Shown here: piece after piece, positions 3,165 through 17,984 of the stretch
Layout: each line of letters starts with the position of its first letter
Numbering within the stretch: the first letter of the stretch is position 1
Virus record (IMG/VR): IMGVR_UViG_2541047596_000007
Length of the DNA: 17,984 bases
Source: a virus
Lineage: Duplodnaviria; Heunggongvirae; Uroviricota; Caudoviricetes
Direction: 5' to 3' (one strand)
The notes under the pieces: generated by a model
What the model was told of the DNA's origin: nothing
What the model saw: the letters and a program-made list of their open reading frames with translations, nothing else
Database searches by the model: none
Made by a program: the position numbers and the translations under genes

Positions 3165-4001
3165 TCATTCCATTTCGAAATCATCAATCCTCACTTCAAG
3201 CTCCAGACTGGTCGTAAAACCATTATCCGGGCTTACGGTATGCGTCAGAGTCGTAATGGTCCATTCCGCATCATCTATCGGCTGTTTAAAGCCACTGACT
3301 TTCACTGGCATTTCCGTGTAGAGATCTGCCCGCCCTTCCGCCAGTTGTAACGAGAATGACGCAACGCCGCGTTGCAGGCGTTCCCACTGCATTTTCGCCG
3401 CTCGTTCGGCGTTGCTCCGGTTGGCATAAGTGCGATTAAGTACCAGCACGTTTTCATCCGTACCCACCAGGTAATCGCCCTGCTTCGCTTCCGGCTCTTT
3501 CTTCTGCTTCTTAGTCCTGCGCTTACGCTTCACCGTGGTGCTTTCTTTCTTCGCGGGTTCGCGGGTATGCAACCAGCTGGCAATTACGCCCGTGTAGGCT
3601 CCGCGATCTGCCAGGGTAAAGCGGTGACTGTCGCCGTCCTTACGTGTGATAGTGATAACCGGTAGTGGTTTACCGCTGGCGCTTTTACCCTGTCCCTGCC
3701 GGATGAATAACAGATTGCCATTTTTCACCGACGCAATAGCACCGTACTGGCGCGCCAGCCGCATCAGAAAACTGCCGTCACTCTCATTGGTCTGGTCTAT
3801 ATGCTCCACGGGTTTATCCGACAGGTCTTCACCCAATGCCATCTTCAGTTTGTGCCGCGCAGATATTTCCTTCACGACTTCCCCAACGGTGGTCTTGTGC
3901 CACGATTTTTCACGGCGGGTATTCAGCGTTTCACGAAAATCAGCACTTCGCGCCCGGATAGTCAGGCGGTCCGGTGCGCCAGTGTGTTCAATCTCGTCCA
4001 C
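3165..4001 (-). pseudogene. P2 gpD-like tail protein, N-terminally truncated remnant
   Basis: The 278-aa ORF (TGAPDRLTIRARSADFRETLNTRRE...DQTNESDGSFLMRLARQYGA) matches the middle and C-terminal part of P2 gpD. About 100 N-terminal residues of the roughly 387-aa protein are missing and the upstream gene U is absent. Confidence 0.7.
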
Positions 4002-4329
4002 CGTGAATGCCCCTTTCGGGAAAAGCGGCTGCCCGATGAAGCAAGCCCGCGTCGCAGCAGTGCCAGTGGTGCGCCAGCCAGCCAGGACAACGCGCTGCTG
4101 GTTCGAGTTACTGCTGCCGTAACGGAAGGTAACATTTTGATACCCAGCACAGAGAATCCCAGACGGATCACTGCCAGCGGCCCCAGCACTGCAGCCAGCG
4201 CCACCGCTAAGGTGCCGAGGCCCACGGTAACGGCAGCCACCACAGCGGCTACTTTCATCAGTGTGCCTGTCAGTTCCGGGTTAGCTTCCACCCAGCGACG
4301 CAACGCCCCTGTGACCGACGCCGCACAAA

Positions 4330-4700
4330 ACCAGGAGGATGTGAACAACCTCCGCAACGCGATGAAAAGCGCCAAAGGCCCAGGTAACTTCCGCAACCTG
4401 TTTATGTACTCGCCTAACGGCAAAAAGGACGGGCTTCAGATCATCCCGTTGTCAGAAGTCGCGGCGAAGGATGAGTTTTTGAATATCAAGAACGTGAGCC
4501 GGGATGACATGATGGCGGCGCATCGTGTGCCGCCTCAGATGATGGGGATTATGCCGAGTAATGTTGGCGGGTTTGGGGATGTGGAAAAGGCTAGTAAGGT
4601 TTTTGTAAGAAATGAAGTAATCCCCTTACAGCAAAGAATCTGTGAAATCAACCGATGGTTAAATGACGATATAATAAATTTTAAAGAATATTCGATGTAA
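4330..4700 (+). pseudogene. Phage portal protein (P2 gpQ-like), C-terminal fragment only
   Basis: The last ~120 aa of ORF 3801-4700 (FRNLFMYSPNGKKDGLQIIPLSEVAAKDEFLNIKNVSRDDMMAAHRVPPQMMGIMPSNVGGFGDVEKA) resemble the portal C-terminus. The N-terminal part of that ORF is antisense to the gpD region and not portal-like. The left boundary is approximate. Confidence 0.5.
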
Positions 4701-4732
4701 AATTAAAGAGTCTCAAATGAGACTCTTTAATT
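4701..4732. terminator. Bidirectional hairpin between portal remnant and HNH gene
   Basis: Perfect 14-bp inverted repeat AATTAAAGAGTCTC / GAGACTCTTTAATT (4701-4714 and 4719-4732) with a 4-nt loop, lying between two convergent stop codons. Confidence 0.55.
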
Positions 4733-5400
4733 TAAGGAAGCATCGTATCAAAAACATCACGCAACGCAGTAGAGAATGGTCTGGGGTCTATTTCTTTATA
4801 ATACTCGTCTCGAAGTTCGTTACGGACACTATCATCATAAAGTCCCTCTTCGATGAACTCTTCAGCTGTAGAAACAAATCTCTCTATCAATGACCATGTT
4901 TCTGATATTGCATTGATGCGCTCAGTTTTCACGCCGCCCTTTTCACCATTCAGGTTAAAAACCCTTATAGTAACCTCAGCTCTTCGCTCATCGTTTCGCG
5001 ATAACCCCGGACGAATATCCATATTTCCATTAATAGCGAAATGGAAAAAATGTGTGGGGTCATCATTATCGGCCTTGATTAGGTCTTGCTCCTGATAGCT
5101 CTGTTCATCTTTGTAAAAACCGCAGTGATTATTTTCAGCACAAGAGCCGAACAAGTTTGACCATTCAAATGTTAAATGCCTATGCTGGCTTCTACGCAAA
5201 AAATGCTCGATATGCTTATCATCACTATTGTGAATATCTATTTTCCGCTCACAATACGCACATCTCTTCCCTTGCATTTCAACTAAACCGACCCAGACTA
5301 ATTGTTTATGTCGCCGTTTAAAAGCATTCCAGTCATGAATATTGTAGTCAAACTCGGCTAAAACACCTGGACCAATGGGATTTCTAGCAAGGAATTTCAT
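4732..5400 (-). CDS. HNH endonuclease, PtuB-like retron/Septu effector
   Basis: 222 aa with an HNH signature (CAYCERKIDIHNSDDKHIEHF ... CAENNHCG). The start overlaps the upstream ATPase stop in an ATGA junction. Confidence 0.8.
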   Translation of the reverse strand: MKFLARNPIGPGVLAEFDYNIHDWNAFKRRHKQLVWVGLVEMQGKRCAYCERKIDIHNSDDKHIEHFLRRSQHRHLTFEWSNLFGSCAENNHCGFYKDEQSYQEQDLIKADNDDPTHFFHFAINGNMDIRPGLSRNDERRAEVTIRVFNLNGEKGGVKTERINAISETWSLIERFVSTAEEFIEEGLYDDSVRNELRDEYYKEIDPRPFSTALRDVFDTMLP

Positions 5401-7052
5401 TGTTTAGATTCCTTATTGCCAGACTCACCCCGCACTTTGTCTTTTAGCTTTAATACACGAATTATACCATCACACTCAAGTAATAATGGGTGATCAATTC
5501 CATAATGCTTGTCTAACTTTTTCCTTATCATTATGGCTTCCTCCGAATCCTGCTGCCTGTTTTCAATAAATTTCTTATAAGTGCTCAGCCATGCGACTTC
5601 TTTTACATTAGGTACAGGATCTGTTTTCATCCCATAAAGCAAAGCGTACGAATTCTTAGTACCTTTTGTTTGAGATGATGGTAAAAGCACACGTAATTCC
5701 TTCATGCCTGTCGAAGGGTTTTTTATTTCCTCAAGGATGCGCAAGCATTTACTTGGAACTGTCGATACAATTTGAGGGCTATGAGTGGTAATTATGAATT
5801 GTACGTTAGGAAATGTATGCTGCAATTTCTCAATAATGTTTTGCTGCCAGCTTGGGTGCAAATGAAGATCAACTTCATCAATTAATACTATACCTTTCCC
5901 TTGAAGTGGATTATTTAACTTAGGATTCAGCAACACCAAGCGTCTTGTTAAATCCCCCACTAATGTAAGTATAGTTTTCTCCCCTTGAGAGAGTTGCTGG
6001 GCATCTAATAGTAAATCATCTTTTGCTAAAACTAAACGAACTTCATTTTCAGTATATTGAAGTTCAACAGAGCTAATTTCAGGAAGGAAATTAATTATTG
6101 CCCTTTTAACATTAGCAACAATATCTTTTGAACGACTTAAACCATTTGGTGTAGACGGTAACGTATTAAGAATCAACTCTTTATTAGCAATTTGTGTTTC
6201 TATATCTATTAATGTTCTTCTATCAACATCACTGAAAGATTTCAAAACCTCCAAAGATACCTTAAGCTTTGAGATATCAATAACAAGTTGATCTCTTTGT
6301 TTTTCTGGTATCAAGGACTCCTCAGACAATGCCTTATTATTAACAAATATAAACCAATTTAAAAACTCACCGAAGTCACGGCGATCAAACTCTATATCTT
6401 CATAAGCATCAAGCTTAGTCCATCGACGCACAGAATTATTAACATTTCTTTTATTATCTATGCCTGCACCATTTGAAGATCTTGATACAGAGTAATATGC
6501 AAGAACCGGAAGGCTTACATCTTCATAATATGAATTCACAACACGAAAGAATGACGCCATCTCTTTTATAGAAAGCAACTCATTATTTCTTTTTTGTGAT
6601 ACTCCATCTTTAACACGTGTAACTAAAATATTTGACGTTATTTTTTTAAGTTTAAACTGCGCAGTTATTGCAGCATAATTGACATCATTATGATTGTTAA
6701 TATCACCATCTTTTATATGAAAACCGCTTTTATCTTCTTTTTGAACATTTGCTCTAAACCAACTTAAAGCAATAAATAATGCTTCAAGAATGGTGGTTTT
6801 ACCGTAACCATTATCACCAACAAACACTGTTAGTTTTTTGTCGATCGAAACAAAAAGATCCCTGACTCTTTTATAGTCTGAGATGGCGACTTTATTTATA
6901 AGAAATGGTGCATCTTCAATTTCCTTATATAACGAAGATACCTCTTCAGGAATGTTCTCTTTACTGAATTCTAAACCATCTTCAGTTTTATTTACATAAG
7001 ACTGCAATAATGTACGAATGTCATTTGGTGATTTAGTATACTTTGAGTTCAC
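5397..7052 (-). CDS. ABC/SMC-like ATPase, PtuA-like retron/Septu partner
   Basis: 551 aa with Walker A (GDNGYGKTT), an ABC-signature-like LSQGEK, and Walker B/H-loop (VLIDEVDLHLHP). Overlaps the RT stop and the HNH start by ATGA at both ends. Confidence 0.82.
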   Translation of the reverse strand: MNSKYTKSPNDIRTLLQSYVNKTEDGLEFSKENIPEEVSSLYKEIEDAPFLINKVAISDYKRVRDLFVSIDKKLTVFVGDNGYGKTTILEALFIALSWFRANVQKEDKSGFHIKDGDINNHNDVNYAAITAQFKLKKITSNILVTRVKDGVSQKRNNELLSIKEMASFFRVVNSYYEDVSLPVLAYYSVSRSSNGAGIDNKRNVNNSVRRWTKLDAYEDIEFDRRDFGEFLNWFIFVNNKALSEESLIPEKQRDQLVIDISKLKVSLEVLKSFSDVDRRTLIDIETQIANKELILNTLPSTPNGLSRSKDIVANVKRAIINFLPEISSVELQYTENEVRLVLAKDDLLLDAQQLSQGEKTILTLVGDLTRRLVLLNPKLNNPLQGKGIVLIDEVDLHLHPSWQQNIIEKLQHTFPNVQFIITTHSPQIVSTVPSKCLRILEEIKNPSTGMKELRVLLPSSQTKGTKNSYALLYGMKTDPVPNVKEVAWLSTYKKFIENRQQDSEEAIMIRKKLDKHYGIDHPLLLECDGIIRVLKLKDKVRGESGNKESKQ

Positions 7053-7990
7053 ATCCCCTCCTCAGAAAAAAGCGCATGTATTACTTCTTTCCCATATTTA
7101 ATTTTCATTCTAGCAATAAATTTAGGCTCTATATATAAAGCATGTCCAACAAAGCCCTTAAGGCTTATAACATCCTCTTTAGCCAGTAAGCCTAGTGTAT
7201 ATTTATGCAGCAGAGAAGAAATCATTCTCTTCTTTTGCCTACCGAGCGAAAGCTCCCCATCAACTGTTAATGTCACACCTGTCACATGTCTATTATGAGC
7301 TTTAGACGTGAATACAGTTTTAGATTCATTTAAAGATATACCTTTAGCACATAATGATAATGCAAACCTTACTACTTTCGGGACCTCAAAAAGTATATTC
7401 TTCTCATCTGTAGAAAATGTAATATCATCAGCATACCTTGAATATGAAATATTCCTAACAGAGCACCAATTGTTTATATAATTATCAAAATCATACATTA
7501 CAAAATTACTAACAAAAGGTGAGGATGGCGCCCCAACGCTCAACACGAGAGTGATACTTCTTTTTTTTCCTGGTTTCCAGAAAAGAATCCCTTCTAAAAA
7601 CTCCTTATCCTCACCTGACAAAACAACCCCTTGAGAGCGAAGTTTATCAAATAAAAGAGCCGGTTTAATTTTATTGAAGAAATTCTGAAAATCCATTTTT
7701 AAAAGATAGGAGTTTGCCATATGGATTTTGGCATTGTCCTTAATTCCTATAGAAACTTTATAAGCTTTCGCTGCATCGTGCACGATGAGCTTGGAAGCCA
7801 AAATTTTCACAACCTCACGCTGAATTCGCTTTATCTCACTCGTTGGTTGAGCAATAAGCCTGAATCCACTTTGTCGTTTAGGAATTGTGTAGACTTTATA
7901 TTTTTTAGGCGCAACACTCGATAACCGCCTCAGCTCGTTAACGTTTACTCCAAGTTCTTTGCTAACAGCCGATAAAATTTCCATAAACAT
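7049..7990 (-). CDS. Retron-type reverse transcriptase
   Basis: 313 aa with RT motifs: LKMDFQNFF (motif A), GAPSSPFVSN (motif B) and RYADDITFS (YADD catalytic motif C). Its size and the adjacent structured ncRNA fit a retron RT. Confidence 0.88.
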   Translation of the reverse strand: MFMEILSAVSKELGVNVNELRRLSSVAPKKYKVYTIPKRQSGFRLIAQPTSEIKRIQREVVKILASKLIVHDAAKAYKVSIGIKDNAKIHMANSYLLKMDFQNFFNKIKPALLFDKLRSQGVVLSGEDKEFLEGILFWKPGKKRSITLVLSVGAPSSPFVSNFVMYDFDNYINNWCSVRNISYSRYADDITFSTDEKNILFEVPKVVRFALSLCAKGISLNESKTVFTSKAHNRHVTGVTLTVDGELSLGRQKKRMISSLLHKYTLGLLAKEDVISLKGFVGHALYIEPKFIARMKIKYGKEVIHALFSEEGM

Positions 7991-8270
7991 TCCGCTTGTG
8001 AGGCCCGCTTGCGCGGGCCGAGCTCTTCACTAAAGACAGCGAAAGCGACGAATTCCGCCTTCGTAAACTATGGCAACAGCCATAGGATGCGAAGGCGGAA
8101 TTCGTCGCTTTCGCAACCCTAAACTGAGCAATAAATTAGAGCCTGGCTTATCGCCCGGCTAGAACGCAATGGTTCCCTAACGCTAAAGAGCATAGGAATA
8201 CTAATGTTGCAACGAACAAATAGCAAGCCGGGCGCGCGCTCGTATCCCCGCCACGCCTGCCCGCTTTATG
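7991..8270 (-). ncRNA. Retron msr-msd non-coding RNA (boundaries approximate)
   Basis: Non-coding GC-rich region immediately upstream of the RT on the same strand. It contains the long msd hairpin (8039-8114), a 7-bp hairpin GGCCCGC-TTGC-GCGGGCC (8002-8019) and a long-range complement CGCCCGGCT (8152-8160) / AGCCGGGCG (8226-8234). I could not identify a1/a2 by eye. Confidence 0.55.
8039..8114 (-). repeat. msd stem-loop: perfect 25-bp inverted repeat
   Basis: GCGAAAGCGACGAATTCCGCCTTCG (8039-8063) is the exact reverse complement of CGAAGGCGGAATTCGTCGCTTTCGC (8090-8114). The 26-nt loop holds an inner 6-bp palindrome CTATGG/CCATAG (8068-8073 and 8080-8085). Confidence 0.85.
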
Positions 8271-8460: not shown

Positions 8461-8694
8461 TTAATGCAGCCAGCTGTCGTCTTCCCACACCTTCTGCATA
8501 ATTTTCATCACTTGTTTTCTTTCTTCGTCCAGTTGCAGTCCGGTCAGTTCCACACCGTTAGAGCTACCTTTGCGGATACGAATTACCGTTTTGGGATACA
8601 GGGGGCGCAGATTGCGGTAAAGCTCGGATTCAAGGGCGTCCAGGATAGACTGGCTAATCTTCTGCTCTTTATCGATCATTATTTCAATGCGCAT
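8461..8694 (-). CDS. DinI-family protein (77 aa)
   Basis: Start taken at the internal Met MRIEIMIDK, preceded by GAGGTG. The pattern MRIE...DAL..EL...W.DD.W parallels E. coli DinI (MRIEVTIAK...WESADDW). Confidence 0.78.
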   Translation of the reverse strand: MRIEIMIDKEQKISQSILDALESELYRNLRPLYPKTVIRIRKGSSNGVELTGLQLDEERKQVMKIMQKVWEDDSWLH

Positions 8695-8704
8695 AAAAGT
8701 CACC

Positions 8705-8893
8705 TCAGTTGATGACATCCATTGAGCGGTTGTATTCGTGGCTTCTGATTTTTGCCATGAGTTCATCTGTCAATTCAGAAACCCACTGCAGAGCCAGCCC
8801 CTTCTCTTCATCACTACACTCACTAGCCGCTACAAGCTTAAGAAAAAAATCAATGCGCTGGAGCTTCAAAGACTCCAAAAAATAGTCCTGCAT
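8705..8893 (-). CDS. Small hypothetical protein (62 aa), first gene of LexA-box operon
   Basis: Start chosen at MQDYFLESL because of a strong SD (GGAGGAAAG then ATG) and LexA boxes just upstream. The longer 96-aa reading would place the LexA boxes inside the coding region. Confidence 0.5.
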   Translation of the reverse strand: MQDYFLESLKLQRIDFFLKLVAASECSDEEKGLALQWVSELTDELMAKIRSHEYNRSMDVIN

Positions 8894-8919: not shown

Positions 8920-8954
8920 TACTGTATGCATAAACACTGTTTATATTTACAGTA
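8920..8954. promoter_or_regulatory. LexA (SOS) box plus adjacent half-matching box upstream of the small-ORF/DinI-like operon
   Basis: caCTGTttatatttACAGta (8935-8954) fits CTGT-N8-ACAG with an AT-rich spacer. The overlapping CTGTatgcataaACAC (8922-8937) is a near match. Confidence 0.6.
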
Positions 8955-13352: not shown

Positions 13353-13862
13353 TCACAGCAAACCGAATGAAGCACCGAGGCCAGTCACGGTATCAACTGC
13401 GCTCGCCATCGCAGGATTAGCCTGTAAACGGGCCTGCAATGAAACAGCAGCCAGCGCCATCAGTCGTGTTACAGAGTTAATGCTGCTGATAGCATCACGA
13501 CGACCTGCACTGGTTTTTACATCGCCAGATACCGCACCTGCAGCAACACGCCCGATCTCTGCGGTTGCACTCATGACGTAATGTGGCAGTTTCTCTTTTG
13601 CCACCTCATTAATTGGTACACATGGCAGACAATGAATCTGTGCCAGAAAACCATCTACCAGCGTTGAATCCTCAGTCAGATCGGTAAGCAGCCAGATGTC
13701 TGGTGCGGTTAATAAATGAGGTTGAGCTGGGTTCAGCTTGTTCCGCAGAATCTGCACATTCATGCCTGCACGTTCTGCCAGTTGCACCAGGTTGTGGCGC
13801 AACGCGAATGCACGACAGGCTTCATCAAAATGTGGATGTTTGGAAACTTGGTAATCAAACAT
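13353..13862 (-). CDS. cII: Phage 186 CII-like transcriptional activator
   Basis: Starting at [24 protein letters not shown]..., the protein has the length and residue pattern I recall for 186/Fels-2 CII. The ORF track's upstream extension is probably untranslated; AGGGGTG precedes the chosen ATG. Confidence 0.8.
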
Positions 13863-15135: not shown

Positions 15136-16164
15136 ATGGATTTTATAAAAAAACTCGAATTTGGAAATTATACTCTCCGTTTTGGTGATGATGTTTTGCT
15201 AGACTATTATGATGAAATTGTTTTCCCCTCTTTTTTGGAGATGGCAAACATCCGCAGAATATCTGACAAATCAGAGTTCTTTTTCATTGATACTGAATGC
15301 GTCATACTTGACGAAGAAGCAACACCCCCAGTACTCGGAATTAAAGGTCGGATTATTAAGAATACATTATTAACCAGAGAACAAGTATTTGATGGTGCTG
15401 ATTTGGTTGAAGATCATAAAGAGCTTGAAACAGCCCCGAGCTCTTTCTTTCTTCTAATATTAAACACTCACAGATTAATTCTTTGCAAGGAAGTTAGTGG
15501 TGCTCCCACAATTCAAAACTTTCAGTCAACAAGTCAGTGTTTCTTAAACATAGAATATGAAAAATACATATCTCATTTATACGAAACCGCACAAGAAGAA
15601 CGCAAAGAAAACCCTGACTTACCTCGAGTCACTAAAAAAAGCTTACGGAACGAAATCAAACGCCCGAAGCTAAGAATAACGCCGTTAACTGACAAACAAA
15701 GCCTAGAGCAATTTATTGATAATTTTAATAAAATCCAAAATGTCTCAGTAAAACTTCTCCCTACAAATCAAGAAGAAATTGATAACGACGAATTTTGGGA
15801 GTCGCTTGAAAGTGCCGGAGACGAAATGGGAAGTATTTCTACATCTATTCGCTTTTCAAACACCGATTCAGGCTTGAATCATGGTGCTGTTTTAGAACAA
15901 CTCACATCAGCAACCAGATTGGCTAATTCAGGAATAAATATTAAAGGATATGATGACAATGGTGATATAATCAAAGGTAGCAATGATGACTTTGTTTTGT
16001 TAAGTGAGATGAATGAATTATCAAAGGATACGGTAGTAGCTGCAAATGAAAGTTATGAGCGGTATGAAAATCTTGTAGAAGAAGGTAAGATATCTCTACC
16101 CCGTTCTCTTTCACAAAAGACGATTAGAATTATTAGCAATATATATGAAAGGTTTGGTCGATGA
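15136..16164 (+). CDS. Hypothetical soluble protein, unrecognised family (candidate exclusion/defence component A)
   Basis: 342-aa ORF 15 nt downstream of the cI stop, with GAGG about 8 nt upstream of the ATG. Visibly AT-rich compared with the phage core. No catalytic or NTP-binding motif recognised; two domains separated by a charged linker. Confidence 0.7.
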   Translation: MDFIKKLEFGNYTLRFGDDVLLDYYDEIVFPSFLEMANIRRISDKSEFFFIDTECVILDEEATPPVLGIKGRIIKNTLLTREQVFDGADLVEDHKELETAPSSFFLLILNTHRLILCKEVSGAPTIQNFQSTSQCFLNIEYEKYISHLYETAQEERKENPDLPRVTKKSLRNEIKRPKLRITPLTDKQSLEQFIDNFNKIQNVSVKLLPTNQEEIDNDEFWESLESAGDEMGSISTSIRFSNTDSGLNHGAVLEQLTSATRLANSGINIKGYDDNGDIIKGSNDDFVLLSEMNELSKDTVVAANESYERYENLVEEGKISLPRSLSQKTIRIISNIYERFGR

Positions 16165-16841
16165 TAAATAAAATAGATGCTAAAGAAATAACCAAAGAGA
16201 AAAACCTTTGGGATGTTTACTTGCTCTGCAAACGGATTACTATTAGTACATTCCATATTTGCATTTTGCTCACAGCATCTATTTTTTTATTAACAAACTC
16301 TTTTTTTATTGAGAAGGATATGTCTCATTTAGTATCTGACATTAGAAACTGGGCTTTGATTGGTTTTAACTTTGCAGTGACAACCTTAGGTTTTCTCATT
16401 GCTGGTTTCACAATATTTGCAACACTATCCAAACCCGAGATGTTTCTTCAGATGATGTCAATACAACATAAAAAAACACAGATGCCCACGTTAAAATATA
16501 ACTTTATGGCATTTATGAAAGTTTTCATCTCATTTATTACGTTTACTTTCATTTATCTAATAATAATTCTCTTTTGTCAAAAAGATGGAATAATTGGTAA
16601 TATAATTGATTTATTTCCATATTCAAAATCGATAAAAGAATTAATTATTAAATTTGGATACTGTGTTATAGGGACTAGCCTTATTTACTTAGTGTTAGTA
16701 GTAAAGACATTTATTTTTAATATCTACGCTATCATAATGAATAATATTCGTTGGGAGTTATACATTAAAAGAAAAGAACAAAGACTTTCCAGTAACAAAG
16801 AGACAATCAATAAAAACATAGATGTAACTAAAATGCATTAA
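16161..16841 (+). CDS. Hypothetical four-TM membrane protein (candidate exclusion/defence component B)
   Basis: 226 aa whose start overlaps the upstream stop by ATGA. Four hydrophobic segments of about 23-30 residues (approx. aa 26-50, 64-89, 115-139, 162-194). Very AT-rich. Confidence 0.7.
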   Translation: MINKIDAKEITKEKNLWDVYLLCKRITISTFHICILLTASIFLLTNSFFIEKDMSHLVSDIRNWALIGFNFAVTTLGFLIAGFTIFATLSKPEMFLQMMSIQHKKTQMPTLKYNFMAFMKVFISFITFTFIYLIIILFCQKDGIIGNIIDLFPYSKSIKELIIKFGYCVIGTSLIYLVLVVKTFIFNIYAIIMNNIRWELYIKRKEQRLSSNKETINKNIDVTKMH

Positions 16842-16878
16842 ACACATAACATATGTATAGTTATCCAATCATCATACA

Positions 16879-16907
16879 TTGACACTGTATAAAAAAACAG
16901 TATAAAT
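16879..16907 (+). promoter_or_regulatory. Sigma70-like promoter with embedded LexA box upstream of int
   Basis: TTGACA (16879-16884), 16-bp spacer, TATAAA (16901-16906). The spacer contains caCTGTataaaaaaACAGta (16883-16902), a CTGT-N8-ACAG LexA box. GGAGGG (16918-16923) precedes the int ATG. Confidence 0.5.
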
Positions 16908-16931
16908 ACTCTCCACTGGAGGGCATTTTTT

Positions 16932-17984
16932 ATGGCAGTACGAAAACTCACCACAGGAAAATGGCTTTGCGAATGTTACCCCGCCGGACGTAGTGGACGT
17001 CGTGTGCGTAAACAATTCGCCACCAAAGGCGAAGCACTGGCTTTTGAGCGTCACACGATGGAAGAAACCGAAGCAAAGCCCTGGCTAGGTGAATCAGTGG
17101 ATCGTCGAACACTGAAAGACGTGGTTGAGCTATGGTTCAAACTACATGGTAAATCACTGACAGCTGGGCAGCATGTCTATGACAAATTGCTGCTGATGGT
17201 TGACGCTCTGGGCAATCCCCTTGCAACCGATCTAACCTCTAAAATGTTTGCCCACTATCGAGATAAACGCCTGACAGGTGAGATCTACTTCAGCGAGAAA
17301 TGGAAGAAAGGAGCAAGCCCGGTCACCATTAACCTGGAGCAAAGCTATCTAAGTAGTGTTTTTAGCGAACTATCCCGCCTGGGCGAATGGTCGTATCCGA
17401 ACCCACTGGAGAACATGCGAAAATTCACCATCGCAGAAAAAGAGATGGCATGGCTTACCCATGAGCAGATTGTTGAATTACTGGCTGATTGCAAACGTCA
17501 TGACCCAATTCTGGCACTGGTAGTTAAGATATGCTTAAGCACAGGCGCACGCTGGCGAGAAGCCGTAAATCTTACTCGTTCACAGGTGACCAAATACCGA
17601 ATTACCTTTGTAAGAACGAAGGGGAAGAAAAACAGAAGCATCCCTATCAGTAAAGAGCTTTACGAAGAGATCATGGCGCTTGATGGGTTCAATTTCTTCA
17701 CAGACTGCTATTTTCAATTTTTATCCGTGATGGAAAAAACGTCTATCGTCCTCCCTCGCGGTCAACTGACACACGTTCTGCGCCATACGTTTGCGGCGCA
17801 TTTCATGATGTCGGGTGGAAATATCCTTGCTTTGCAAAAAATCCTCGGACATCACGATATAAAAATGACTATGCGTTACGCTCATCTGGCACCGGATCAT
17901 CTGGAAACGGCGCTCCGTTTCAACCCTCTGGCAACGCTGCCAAGTGGCGACAAAGTGGCGGCAGCGGTTGGCATTACCCCGTAA
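16932..17984 (+). CDS. int: P2/186-type tyrosine integrase
   Basis: 350 aa with the tyrosine-recombinase catalytic pattern: R in STGARWREA, HxxR in HVLRHTFAAHF, and the tyrosine in MRYAHL. The N-terminus resembles P2 Int (MAVRKL vs MAIKKL). The stop codon is the last triplet of the window. Confidence 0.9.
   Translation: MAVRKLTTGKWLCECYPAGRSGRRVRKQFATKGEALAFERHTMEETEAKPWLGESVDRRTLKDVVELWFKLHGKSLTAGQHVYDKLLLMVDALGNPLATDLTSKMFAHYRDKRLTGEIYFSEKWKKGASPVTINLEQSYLSSVFSELSRLGEWSYPNPLENMRKFTIAEKEMAWLTHEQIVELLADCKRHDPILALVVKICLSTGARWREAVNLTRSQVTKYRITFVRTKGKKNRSIPISKELYEEIMALDGFNFFTDCYFQFLSVMEKTSIVLPRGQLTHVLRHTFAAHFMMSGGNILALQKILGHHDIKMTMRYAHLAPDHLETALRFNPLATLPSGDKVAAAVGITP

Follow-up and report, generated by a model that had tools for sequence, protein, structure and literature searches.

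Phage 186 is a textbook example of a lysis-lysogeny switch, in which int is described as transcribed together with cI. The pE promoter of this phage, which has no usable −35 hexamer, negligible basal activity and no LexA box, drives cI and, by read-through, int. To our knowledge, the p95 promoter of the tum gene is the only SOS input described for 186, and int lacks a separate promoter there. The pE promoter has been described as the only CII-activated promoter of 186 (PMC7708051), and the half-sites bound there by CII are located at positions −58 and −38 (PMC6593788). The role of pE as the sole CII-activated promoter fits the operon layout of 186, and hence a second CII site in the relatives of this phage would be a new feature.

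Other arrangements are known outside the 186 family. In phage lambda the establishment activator turns on pI, a dedicated int promoter that is separate from the repressor promoter, while the control of int upon induction is exerted via pL transcripts and sib retroregulation. In integrons, the intI gene of a tyrosine recombinase is transcribed from the LexA-repressed promoter Pint, and the LexA box overlapping this promoter has been kept across many elements (PMC3108266).

The locus compared here with these systems is the region directly upstream of int in a 17,984-nt stretch of DNA, which was analyzed as a whole and is further called the window. The predicted int promoter in this region resembles 186 p95, which belongs to the same phage family and answers to the same host repressor, in that a strong LexA box overlaps the promoter, and both promoters would fire upon LexA cleavage; unlike the int promoter, p95 drives the gene of an antirepressor and not of a recombinase. 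It resembles pE in having half-sites of the form ATGTWTG, with a 20-bp spacing and at the same distance to the −10 hexamer, and in the presence of a related CII protein (69% identity), while it differs from pE in having a TTGACA hexamer and a LexA box in the spacer, and in the N12 separation of the half-sites in half of its relatives. Like lambda pI, it could be a dedicated int promoter turned on by an establishment activator apart from the repressor promoter, but lambda CII and the site that it binds (TTGC-N6-TTGC) are of unrelated types, and pI has no LexA operator. As at integron Pint, recombination would be coupled to DNA damage, but Pint does not serve a phage integrase, and it has neither an activator site, nor a leader hairpin, nor a link to the lysis-lysogeny decision. 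Hence, LexA-controlled phage promoters, CII-activated promoters and LexA-controlled recombinase genes are each known separately, while their combination at int is apparently undescribed. A search of the openly accessible literature found no report of either a LexA operator or a CII operator at a P2/186-type int.

RESULTS AND DISCUSSION

The int locus is part of a 186/P2-type prophage remnant

The window covers the right portion of a prophage of the 186/P2 type, whose insertion site lies between rybB and rcdA. The gene content of this portion comprises replication gene A, cII, a Cox/Apl-like gene, cI, two AT-rich ORFs of unknown function, and int (Table 1). The int ORF starts with the ATG at 16932 and continues to the end of the window, and its product aligns with 186 Int from residue 1 at 56% identity, and the full-length comparison of CII between the window and 186 gave 69% identity. 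The cI protein is unusually long, as its 292 aa include two helix-turn-helix matches to Phage_CI_repr, while in relatives the protein has 165–198 aa with one such match; the cI protein of phage 4LV2017 has 313 aa. The left part of the window includes the host gene ybjL (935–2620), which is followed by the RybB sRNA (2700–2778). The prophage itself is a deletion remnant; its structural genes are missing apart from a partial gpD-like tail gene (3165–4001, minus strand) and the partial portal gene that it abuts (3801–4700). A full prophage with the same right half is present in E. coli strain 8GC. A type I-A retron occupies the cos-proximal hotspot (4732–8191, minus strand).

Table 1. Positions of the features of the window discussed in the text
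Feature	Position	Strand	Basis or remarks
CII-type operator, inverted repeat ATGTATA-N13-CATACAT	16853–16879	+	match to 186 CII site
−35 hexamer TTGACA	16879–16884	+	direct reading
LexA operator CACTGTATAAAAAAACAGTA in promoter spacer	16883–16902	+	23.7 bits; CTGT-N8-ACAG core 16885–16900
−10 hexamer TATAAA, 16-nt spacer	16901–16906	+	direct reading; position 6 without T
Leader hairpin CTCTCC-ACT-GGAGGG, then CATTTTTT	16909–16931	+	terminator-like listing; stem 16909–16923
Ribosome-binding site GGAGGG	16918–16923	+	in 3′ arm of hairpin
int, tyrosine integrase, 350 aa	16932–17984	+	Pfam Int_N and Phage_integrase
Cargo ORF pair, AT-rich, between cI and int module	15136–16841	+	variable cargo at same position in relatives
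cI repressor, 292 aa	14242–15120	+	Phage_CI_repr (two stretches) and Phage_CI_C
pE-type CII operator ATGTTTG-N13-CAAACAT at cII start	13836–13862	+	half-sites identical to 186 annotation
cII, 169 aa	13353–13862	−	Pfam Phage_CP76
LexA operator TACTGTAAATATAAACAGTG of tum (p95-type) promoter	8935–8954	−	23.2 bits
Small ORF (8705–8893), then DinI-like Tum-type gene (8461–8694)	8461–8893	−	Pfam DinI, phrog_189, phrog_698
Retron msr RNA	8123–8191	−	Rfam
Retron reverse transcriptase	7049–7990	−	
Retron PtuA-like ATPase	5397–7052	−	
Retron PtuB/HNH-like protein	4732–5400	−	

A strong LexA box fills the spacer of the predicted int promoter

The initial annotation had placed a LexA box between a TTGACA and a TATAAA hexamer, 30 nt before the int ATG, and the direct reading of positions 16600–17984 confirmed this arrangement base for base. 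The description of the promoter as near-consensus was correct for the −35 hexamer, while the −10 hexamer is missing the conserved T at position 6, which explains why a consensus promoter scan omitted the int promoter from its list. The promoter was nevertheless retained on comparative grounds despite its imperfect −10 hexamer. The −35 position in relatives is occupied by TTGAC[AC], TTTACA or TTGAWT. On the basis of spacing, the transcription start is predicted at about 16912–16915.

The strength of the LexA box was assessed with a matrix made from 16 E. coli LexA boxes (Table 4 of PMC3009722). The data showed that the int box, with 23.7 bits, and the tum box, with 23.2 bits, are both within the range of the known sites (14.1–28.3 bits). 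The int box falls in the upper half of the known E. coli operators, and it scores above the proven sites of recA (22.0 bits), sulA (22.4 bits) and lexA (20.3 bits) in the same matrix. The heterology index of the int box, calculated with the same 16 sites, was 2.1. The box is a 20-bp palindrome of the TACTG(TA)5CAGTA type with a score like those of proven sites, and it covers the whole spacer together with two nucleotides of each hexamer, which means that it overlaps the core promoter elements. A sequence upstream of qnrB alleles has been cited as a binding site of LexA (PMC6856666), and the 16-nt core of the int box, CTGTATAAAAAAACAG, matches it exactly; the gene and its context are unrelated, and the match supports only the treatment of this exact sequence as a LexA site.

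The second LexA core of the window, previously noticed upstream of a DinI-like operon, indeed precedes the small ORF and the DinI-like gene of the Tum type on the minus strand, and this arrangement is that of the LexA-controlled tum operon of phage 186. Exact copies of CTGTN8ACAG are present in the window at two positions (16885 and 8937), while dinucleotide shuffles contained on average 0.18 copies, and at least two copies in 4 of 200 shuffles. The initial estimate of the chance expectation had been roughly 0.3. The third-ranking LexA-type match of the window, after the int and tum sites, scored 16.5 bits. This match (7193–7212) is located within the retron reverse transcriptase gene, and a weaker LexA-like box of 15.0 bits (8920–8939) overlaps the strong box of the tum promoter. 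Judged from the sequence, the int LexA box is not a chance occurrence.

The LexA box accompanies int in many enterobacterial genera

To describe the spread of this arrangement, int homologues were sampled from one genome per species and from phage records, which gave 78 usable loci, and a box was called when it scored at least 12 bits and ended 27–35 nt before the int ATG. A LexA-like box was present in 44 of the 78 loci, irrespective of the upstream content, while only 0.35% of 150-nt windows drawn at random from these loci reached a score of at least 12 bits; because the loci are mutually related, this and the other counts do not represent independent events. The distribution of box scores across the loci was bimodal. 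The carriers belong to Escherichia, Klebsiella, Enterobacter, Citrobacter, Raoultella, Kluyvera, Serratia, Yersinia, Pantoea, Pectobacterium, Rahnella, Brenneria and other genera, with Int identities to the window Int down to about 54%. In a neighbor-joining tree, the box-positive integrases were found mainly in two related clades, with few exceptions. Among 38 distinct 20-mers, A2, C3, A13, A15 and T19, which the search had left free, were nearly invariant and the center was variable, as in the LexA consensus, while the invariance of TG and CAG is partly due to their use as the search anchor.

Within E. coli, at least 80% of the 91-nt module was found in 945 of 5426 complete genomes (~17%, or about one in six), including the BL21(DE3) lineage. 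The homology of E. coli genomes to the window mostly ends at about 16872, just upstream of the −35 hexamer. Three further variants of the module were sampled intact. Another one, in E. coli E47 (L093; NZ_CP121151.1 around 3539311–3539422), is cut by the ISL3-family element ISKox3, which truncates the module inside the LexA box, with the loss of the −35 hexamer and of the repeat located upstream of it. The module was absent from 186, Fels-2, PSP3, Haemophilus S2 and the Vibrio phages K139/kappa, which were searched as distant P2 relatives, and in which int abuts or overlaps the upstream gene. The comparison agrees with the earlier proposal of an independent, SOS-repressible int promoter, unlike the layout of 186 with its joint transcription of cI and int, because the predicted unit stays together with int across genera.

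A hairpin in the int leader overlaps the predicted transcription start

The leader between the −10 hexamer and the int ATG contains a hairpin whose sequence has the pattern of an intrinsic terminator, with six base pairs (four of them G-C), a 3-nt loop and the T-run CATTTTTT. The fold of positions 16901–16934 had an energy of −7.7 kcal/mol (z −3.2). A clear hairpin was predicted in 36 of 38 distinct leaders, with a mean energy of −11.9 kcal/mol versus −3.4 kcal/mol for shuffles, even though at least eight different stem sequences were present among them. The stems of individual groups included GCCCTC/GAGGGC, GCTCTCC/GGAGGGC, CACATTCTC/GAGAATGTG, CCCCC/GGGGG and CTCTCCT/AGGAGAG. A purine-rich ribosome-binding site is part of the 3′ arm in most groups, while the T-run following the hairpin is present in the Escherichia/Klebsiella-type groups and missing in several others. 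RNAalifold, applied to 16 leaders aligned with MAFFT, returned no consensus pairs, as this alignment did not bring the stems into register, and thus the conservation of the hairpin rests on the folding of each sequence separately.

The predicted start at 16912–16915 falls inside the 5′ arm of the hairpin, and hence the stem could fold in RNA that enters from upstream but not in RNA initiated at the int promoter. In the model predictions, the ribosome-binding region was less paired in the short RNA for 41 of 42 distinct leaders. The mean unpaired probability of this region was 0.22 in the read-through RNA versus 0.47–0.58 in the short RNA, although this gain is partly a length effect, as a shorter RNA has fewer pairing partners. 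The gating of Int synthesis by a transcription start inside the hairpin is a tentative proposal from these folding predictions, and we would place its chances slightly below even.

A repeat upstream of the −35 hexamer resembles the CII operator of pE

When 45 distinct modules were anchored on the LexA box, a conserved inverted repeat was found just upstream of the −35 hexamer (Table 1). In the GenBank record of phage 186 the CII site of pE is annotated as ATGTTTG-N13-CAAACAT, and the repeat at the int promoter has one mismatch to it if position 5 may be A or T, which is the case at natural pE sites. A repeat of this type with at most two mismatches was present at the fixed position in 43 of 46 distinct int modules, compared to 0.4% of control windows. 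In about 1 Mb of loci, such repeats occurred almost only at the cII start, which is the position of pE, and 79–85 nt before int. The half-sites at the window int promoter are 20 bp apart, with centers at 16856 and 16876. Relative to a start predicted 7–8 nt past the −10 hexamer, at 16913–16914, this places them at −57/−37 to −58/−38. The distance from the right half-site to the −10 hexamer is 21 nt both at 186 pE, where this hexamer is TAAAGT, and at the window int promoter. The cognate CII protein is encoded within the same element. Hence, the predicted geometry leans toward a real CII input at the int promoter, which we regard as slightly better supported than its absence.

Several other proteins were considered as ligands of the repeat. 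A CI operator was ruled out, because the 186 CI sites have the form ATTCAC-N5-GTGAAT. The Ogr/Delta late-promoter element is TGT-N12-ACA, and an element of this type was rejected, as the spacing at the repeat is N19. An IHF site was rejected as a general explanation, since its consensus fits in the Rahnella group only. An Int arm-type site is unlikely, because the repeats found downstream of int are only loosely similar. These are two direct repeats of ~13 nt (AACTTATTGTTTT) located just past the int stop codon (at 6142–6230 in locus L003, 7050–7140 in L005, and in other loci). They probably serve as arm-type sites for Int in the P′ arm; their sequence is not the arm consensus given in the 186 annotation (YAYCGCCAYTY).

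The most serious alternative to a promoter with two inputs is that LexA represses an autonomous int promoter, while the upstream repeat is not a working CII site and the hairpin is the terminator of the upstream operon; the repeat could then have been left over from a duplication of pE, or another protein, for instance Int, could bind there. The core of the int promoter is consistent with this alternative, because pE has a weak core with no comparable −35 hexamer, while the int promoter has TTGACA with a 16-nt spacing, and hence need not depend on an activator. The spacing of the half-sites also points in this direction, as it is N13 in the window and at every pE, while it is N12 in about half of the related int modules. 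Shearwin and Egan reportedly observed in 2000 that a 1-bp change of this spacing lowered the affinity of CII. Moreover, any activation would be masked by LexA bound in the spacer, the window hairpin fits the terminator pattern, and the Rahnella group has a similar repeat before ogr, a gene whose activation by CII would make little sense. On the other hand, 43 of the 46 modules have both half-sites at the usual position despite unrelated flanks, which is not expected of a relic, the geometry of the repeat is that of pE, and the loose similarity to the AACTTATTGTTTT repeats argues against a site for Int. Taken together, we consider this alternative unlikely, with perhaps a chance in the order of one against several.

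The repeat upstream of the late activator gene ogr in the Rahnella-group prophages, ATGTATG-N13-CATACAA, is located directly before this gene (at 4681 in L028, 5099 in L029, 5575 in L031 and L033, 5576 in L030, L038 and L079, and 2964 in L035). Its distance to the −10 hexamer is about 15 nt, unlike at pE, and it might let CII repress the activation of late genes.

The opposite alternative, in which the promoter is solely of the CII-dependent establishment type and the LexA-like palindrome is unoccupied or has no regulatory effect in vivo, appears very improbable. It would explain the presence of the repeat in the pE geometry, but the int box outscores many proven operators and its core is the sequence cited as the qnrB LexA site. 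Also, the LexA-relevant positions of the box are conserved while its center drifts, and the spacer of 186 pE contains no such palindrome.

The genomic context suggests that the int module is independent of the repressor operon

The position of int relative to cI was compared between loci with and without the box. Where a box-positive locus had a recognizable cI, 81 to 3311 nt separated the end of this gene from the start of int, and the inserted genes varied between loci. In Escherichia phage ESSI2_ev129 there is no insert at all, and the box is kept in a 77-nt intergenic region. In the group of Rahnella, Pectobacterium and Pantoea, the unit is retained although int is located downstream of the tail genes T, U and D and of ogr, all in one orientation, which places int outside any cI operon there. 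In 186, Fels-2 and many others, the cI stop codon is 5–7 nt from the int start, and there is no box. In 28 of the 36 box-negative loci the upstream ORF ends at most 27 nt from int, while the gap in box-positive loci is typically 65–270 nt. The abutting cI-int layout of 186 is not present in the window, where the 1.8-kb gap holds two foreign ORFs and the terminator-like hairpin.

These layouts bear on the possibility that int is essentially expressed by read-through from pL/pE, as in 186, and that the motif cluster is a non-functional or very weak internal promoter. Such read-through is the classical 186 model, with int downstream of cI and pE as the sole CII-activated promoter (PMC7708051), and the imperfect −10 hexamer would agree with it. 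However, cI and int of the window are 1.8 kb apart, with AT-rich foreign cargo and the terminator-like hairpin between them, the module is kept where int follows ogr with no cI upstream, and the operon-type loci are without the module just as the module-type loci are without tight coupling. For these reasons we give read-through little credence. The weakest alternative, the binding of the palindrome by a phage-encoded protein instead of host LexA, is hardly credible, because the module is common to phages with unrelated cI types (165, 198, 292 and 313 aa), the 186-type CI operators are ATTCAC-N5-GTGAAT, and the palindrome matches the host LexA consensus in every genus sampled.

A model of int control by LexA and CII

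The best model for the region 16853–16931 is that of a self-contained int promoter and leader module, which would replace the cI-int operon coupling of 186. The initial interpretation as an SOS promoter is supported by the data, but it appears incomplete, because the region also has a 186-CII-type operator and a conserved leader hairpin, which give it a dual-input look. Of the components of this model, the LexA-repressed autonomous int promoter is the one that we hold with considerable confidence on the comparative evidence. The whole combination, in which this promoter is also probably CII-responsive and insulated from the cI-cargo operon, is the reading that we favor, with a probability that is good but clearly lower.

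In the favored model, LexA would sit on the spacer in a lysogen and keep the otherwise strong int promoter shut, while read-through RNA from cI and the cargo would fold the hairpin, and either termination at the T-run or masking of the ribosome-binding site would leave little Int. Upon DNA damage and LexA cleavage, the tum and int promoters would both open. Tum would inactivate CI, the lytic promoter would be turned on, and the Apl/Cox excisionase would be made, while the int promoter would give fresh Int independently of the now-inhibited lysogenic promoter. Because both promoters would open together, excisionase and integrase would appear together. The int-promoter RNA would begin inside the 5′ arm of the hairpin, which therefore could not form, and this RNA would escape termination and be translated. 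After infection, CII bound to the repeat, as at pE, could help RNA polymerase to fire the int promoter for integration. A point against the model is that, in cells free of DNA damage, a spacer occupied by a LexA dimer should be closed to stimulation by CII as well.

A bolder generalization would be that in a large clade of 186/P2-type prophages int has been uncoupled from the repressor operon and placed under one 80-bp promoter, which reads CII as the signal to integrate now and the loss of LexA as the signal to excise now. Transcription would start within a terminator/ribosome-binding site hairpin, so that only promoter-initiated RNA, unlike read-through RNA, would give Int, and it is this insulation that would have let the gap between cI and int turn into a hotspot for cargo such as defense genes. 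We put this forward as a possibility that is rather doubtful in its full extent.

If the module works as we infer, very common relatives of 186 in E. coli, Klebsiella, Enterobacter, Serratia, Yersinia, Pectobacterium and Rahnella are wired differently from 186, and in them DNA damage would act directly on the supply of integrase, as CII probably would too. This bears on the question how SOS-inducing antibiotics mobilize or cure these prophages together with their defense and cargo genes. It also bears on defective remnants like that in the window, in which tum, the LexA-controlled int and the retron have been retained. The module would be a compact natural promoter with two inputs, and reagents for 186 already exist.

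The model also bears on why the cargo hotspot between cI and int leaves the control of recombination undisturbed. As int would have its own control unit, the stretch from cI to the module would be free for variable cargo. A cargo hotspot between cI and int has been noted in Vibrio P2 relatives (PMC9122126), where the cargo abuts int and there is no int module. At the same position, relatives of the window prophage carry DUF4276, DUF4041, a KAP NTPase or a "chromosome segregation ATPase". The two cargo ORFs of the window overlap each other, encode 342 and 226 aa, have a GC content of about 0.29–0.36, and gave no match in Pfam, PADLOC, PHROGs or NCBIfam. Since relatives hold other cargo at this place, their position suggests that they may be an undescribed defense or accessory pair.
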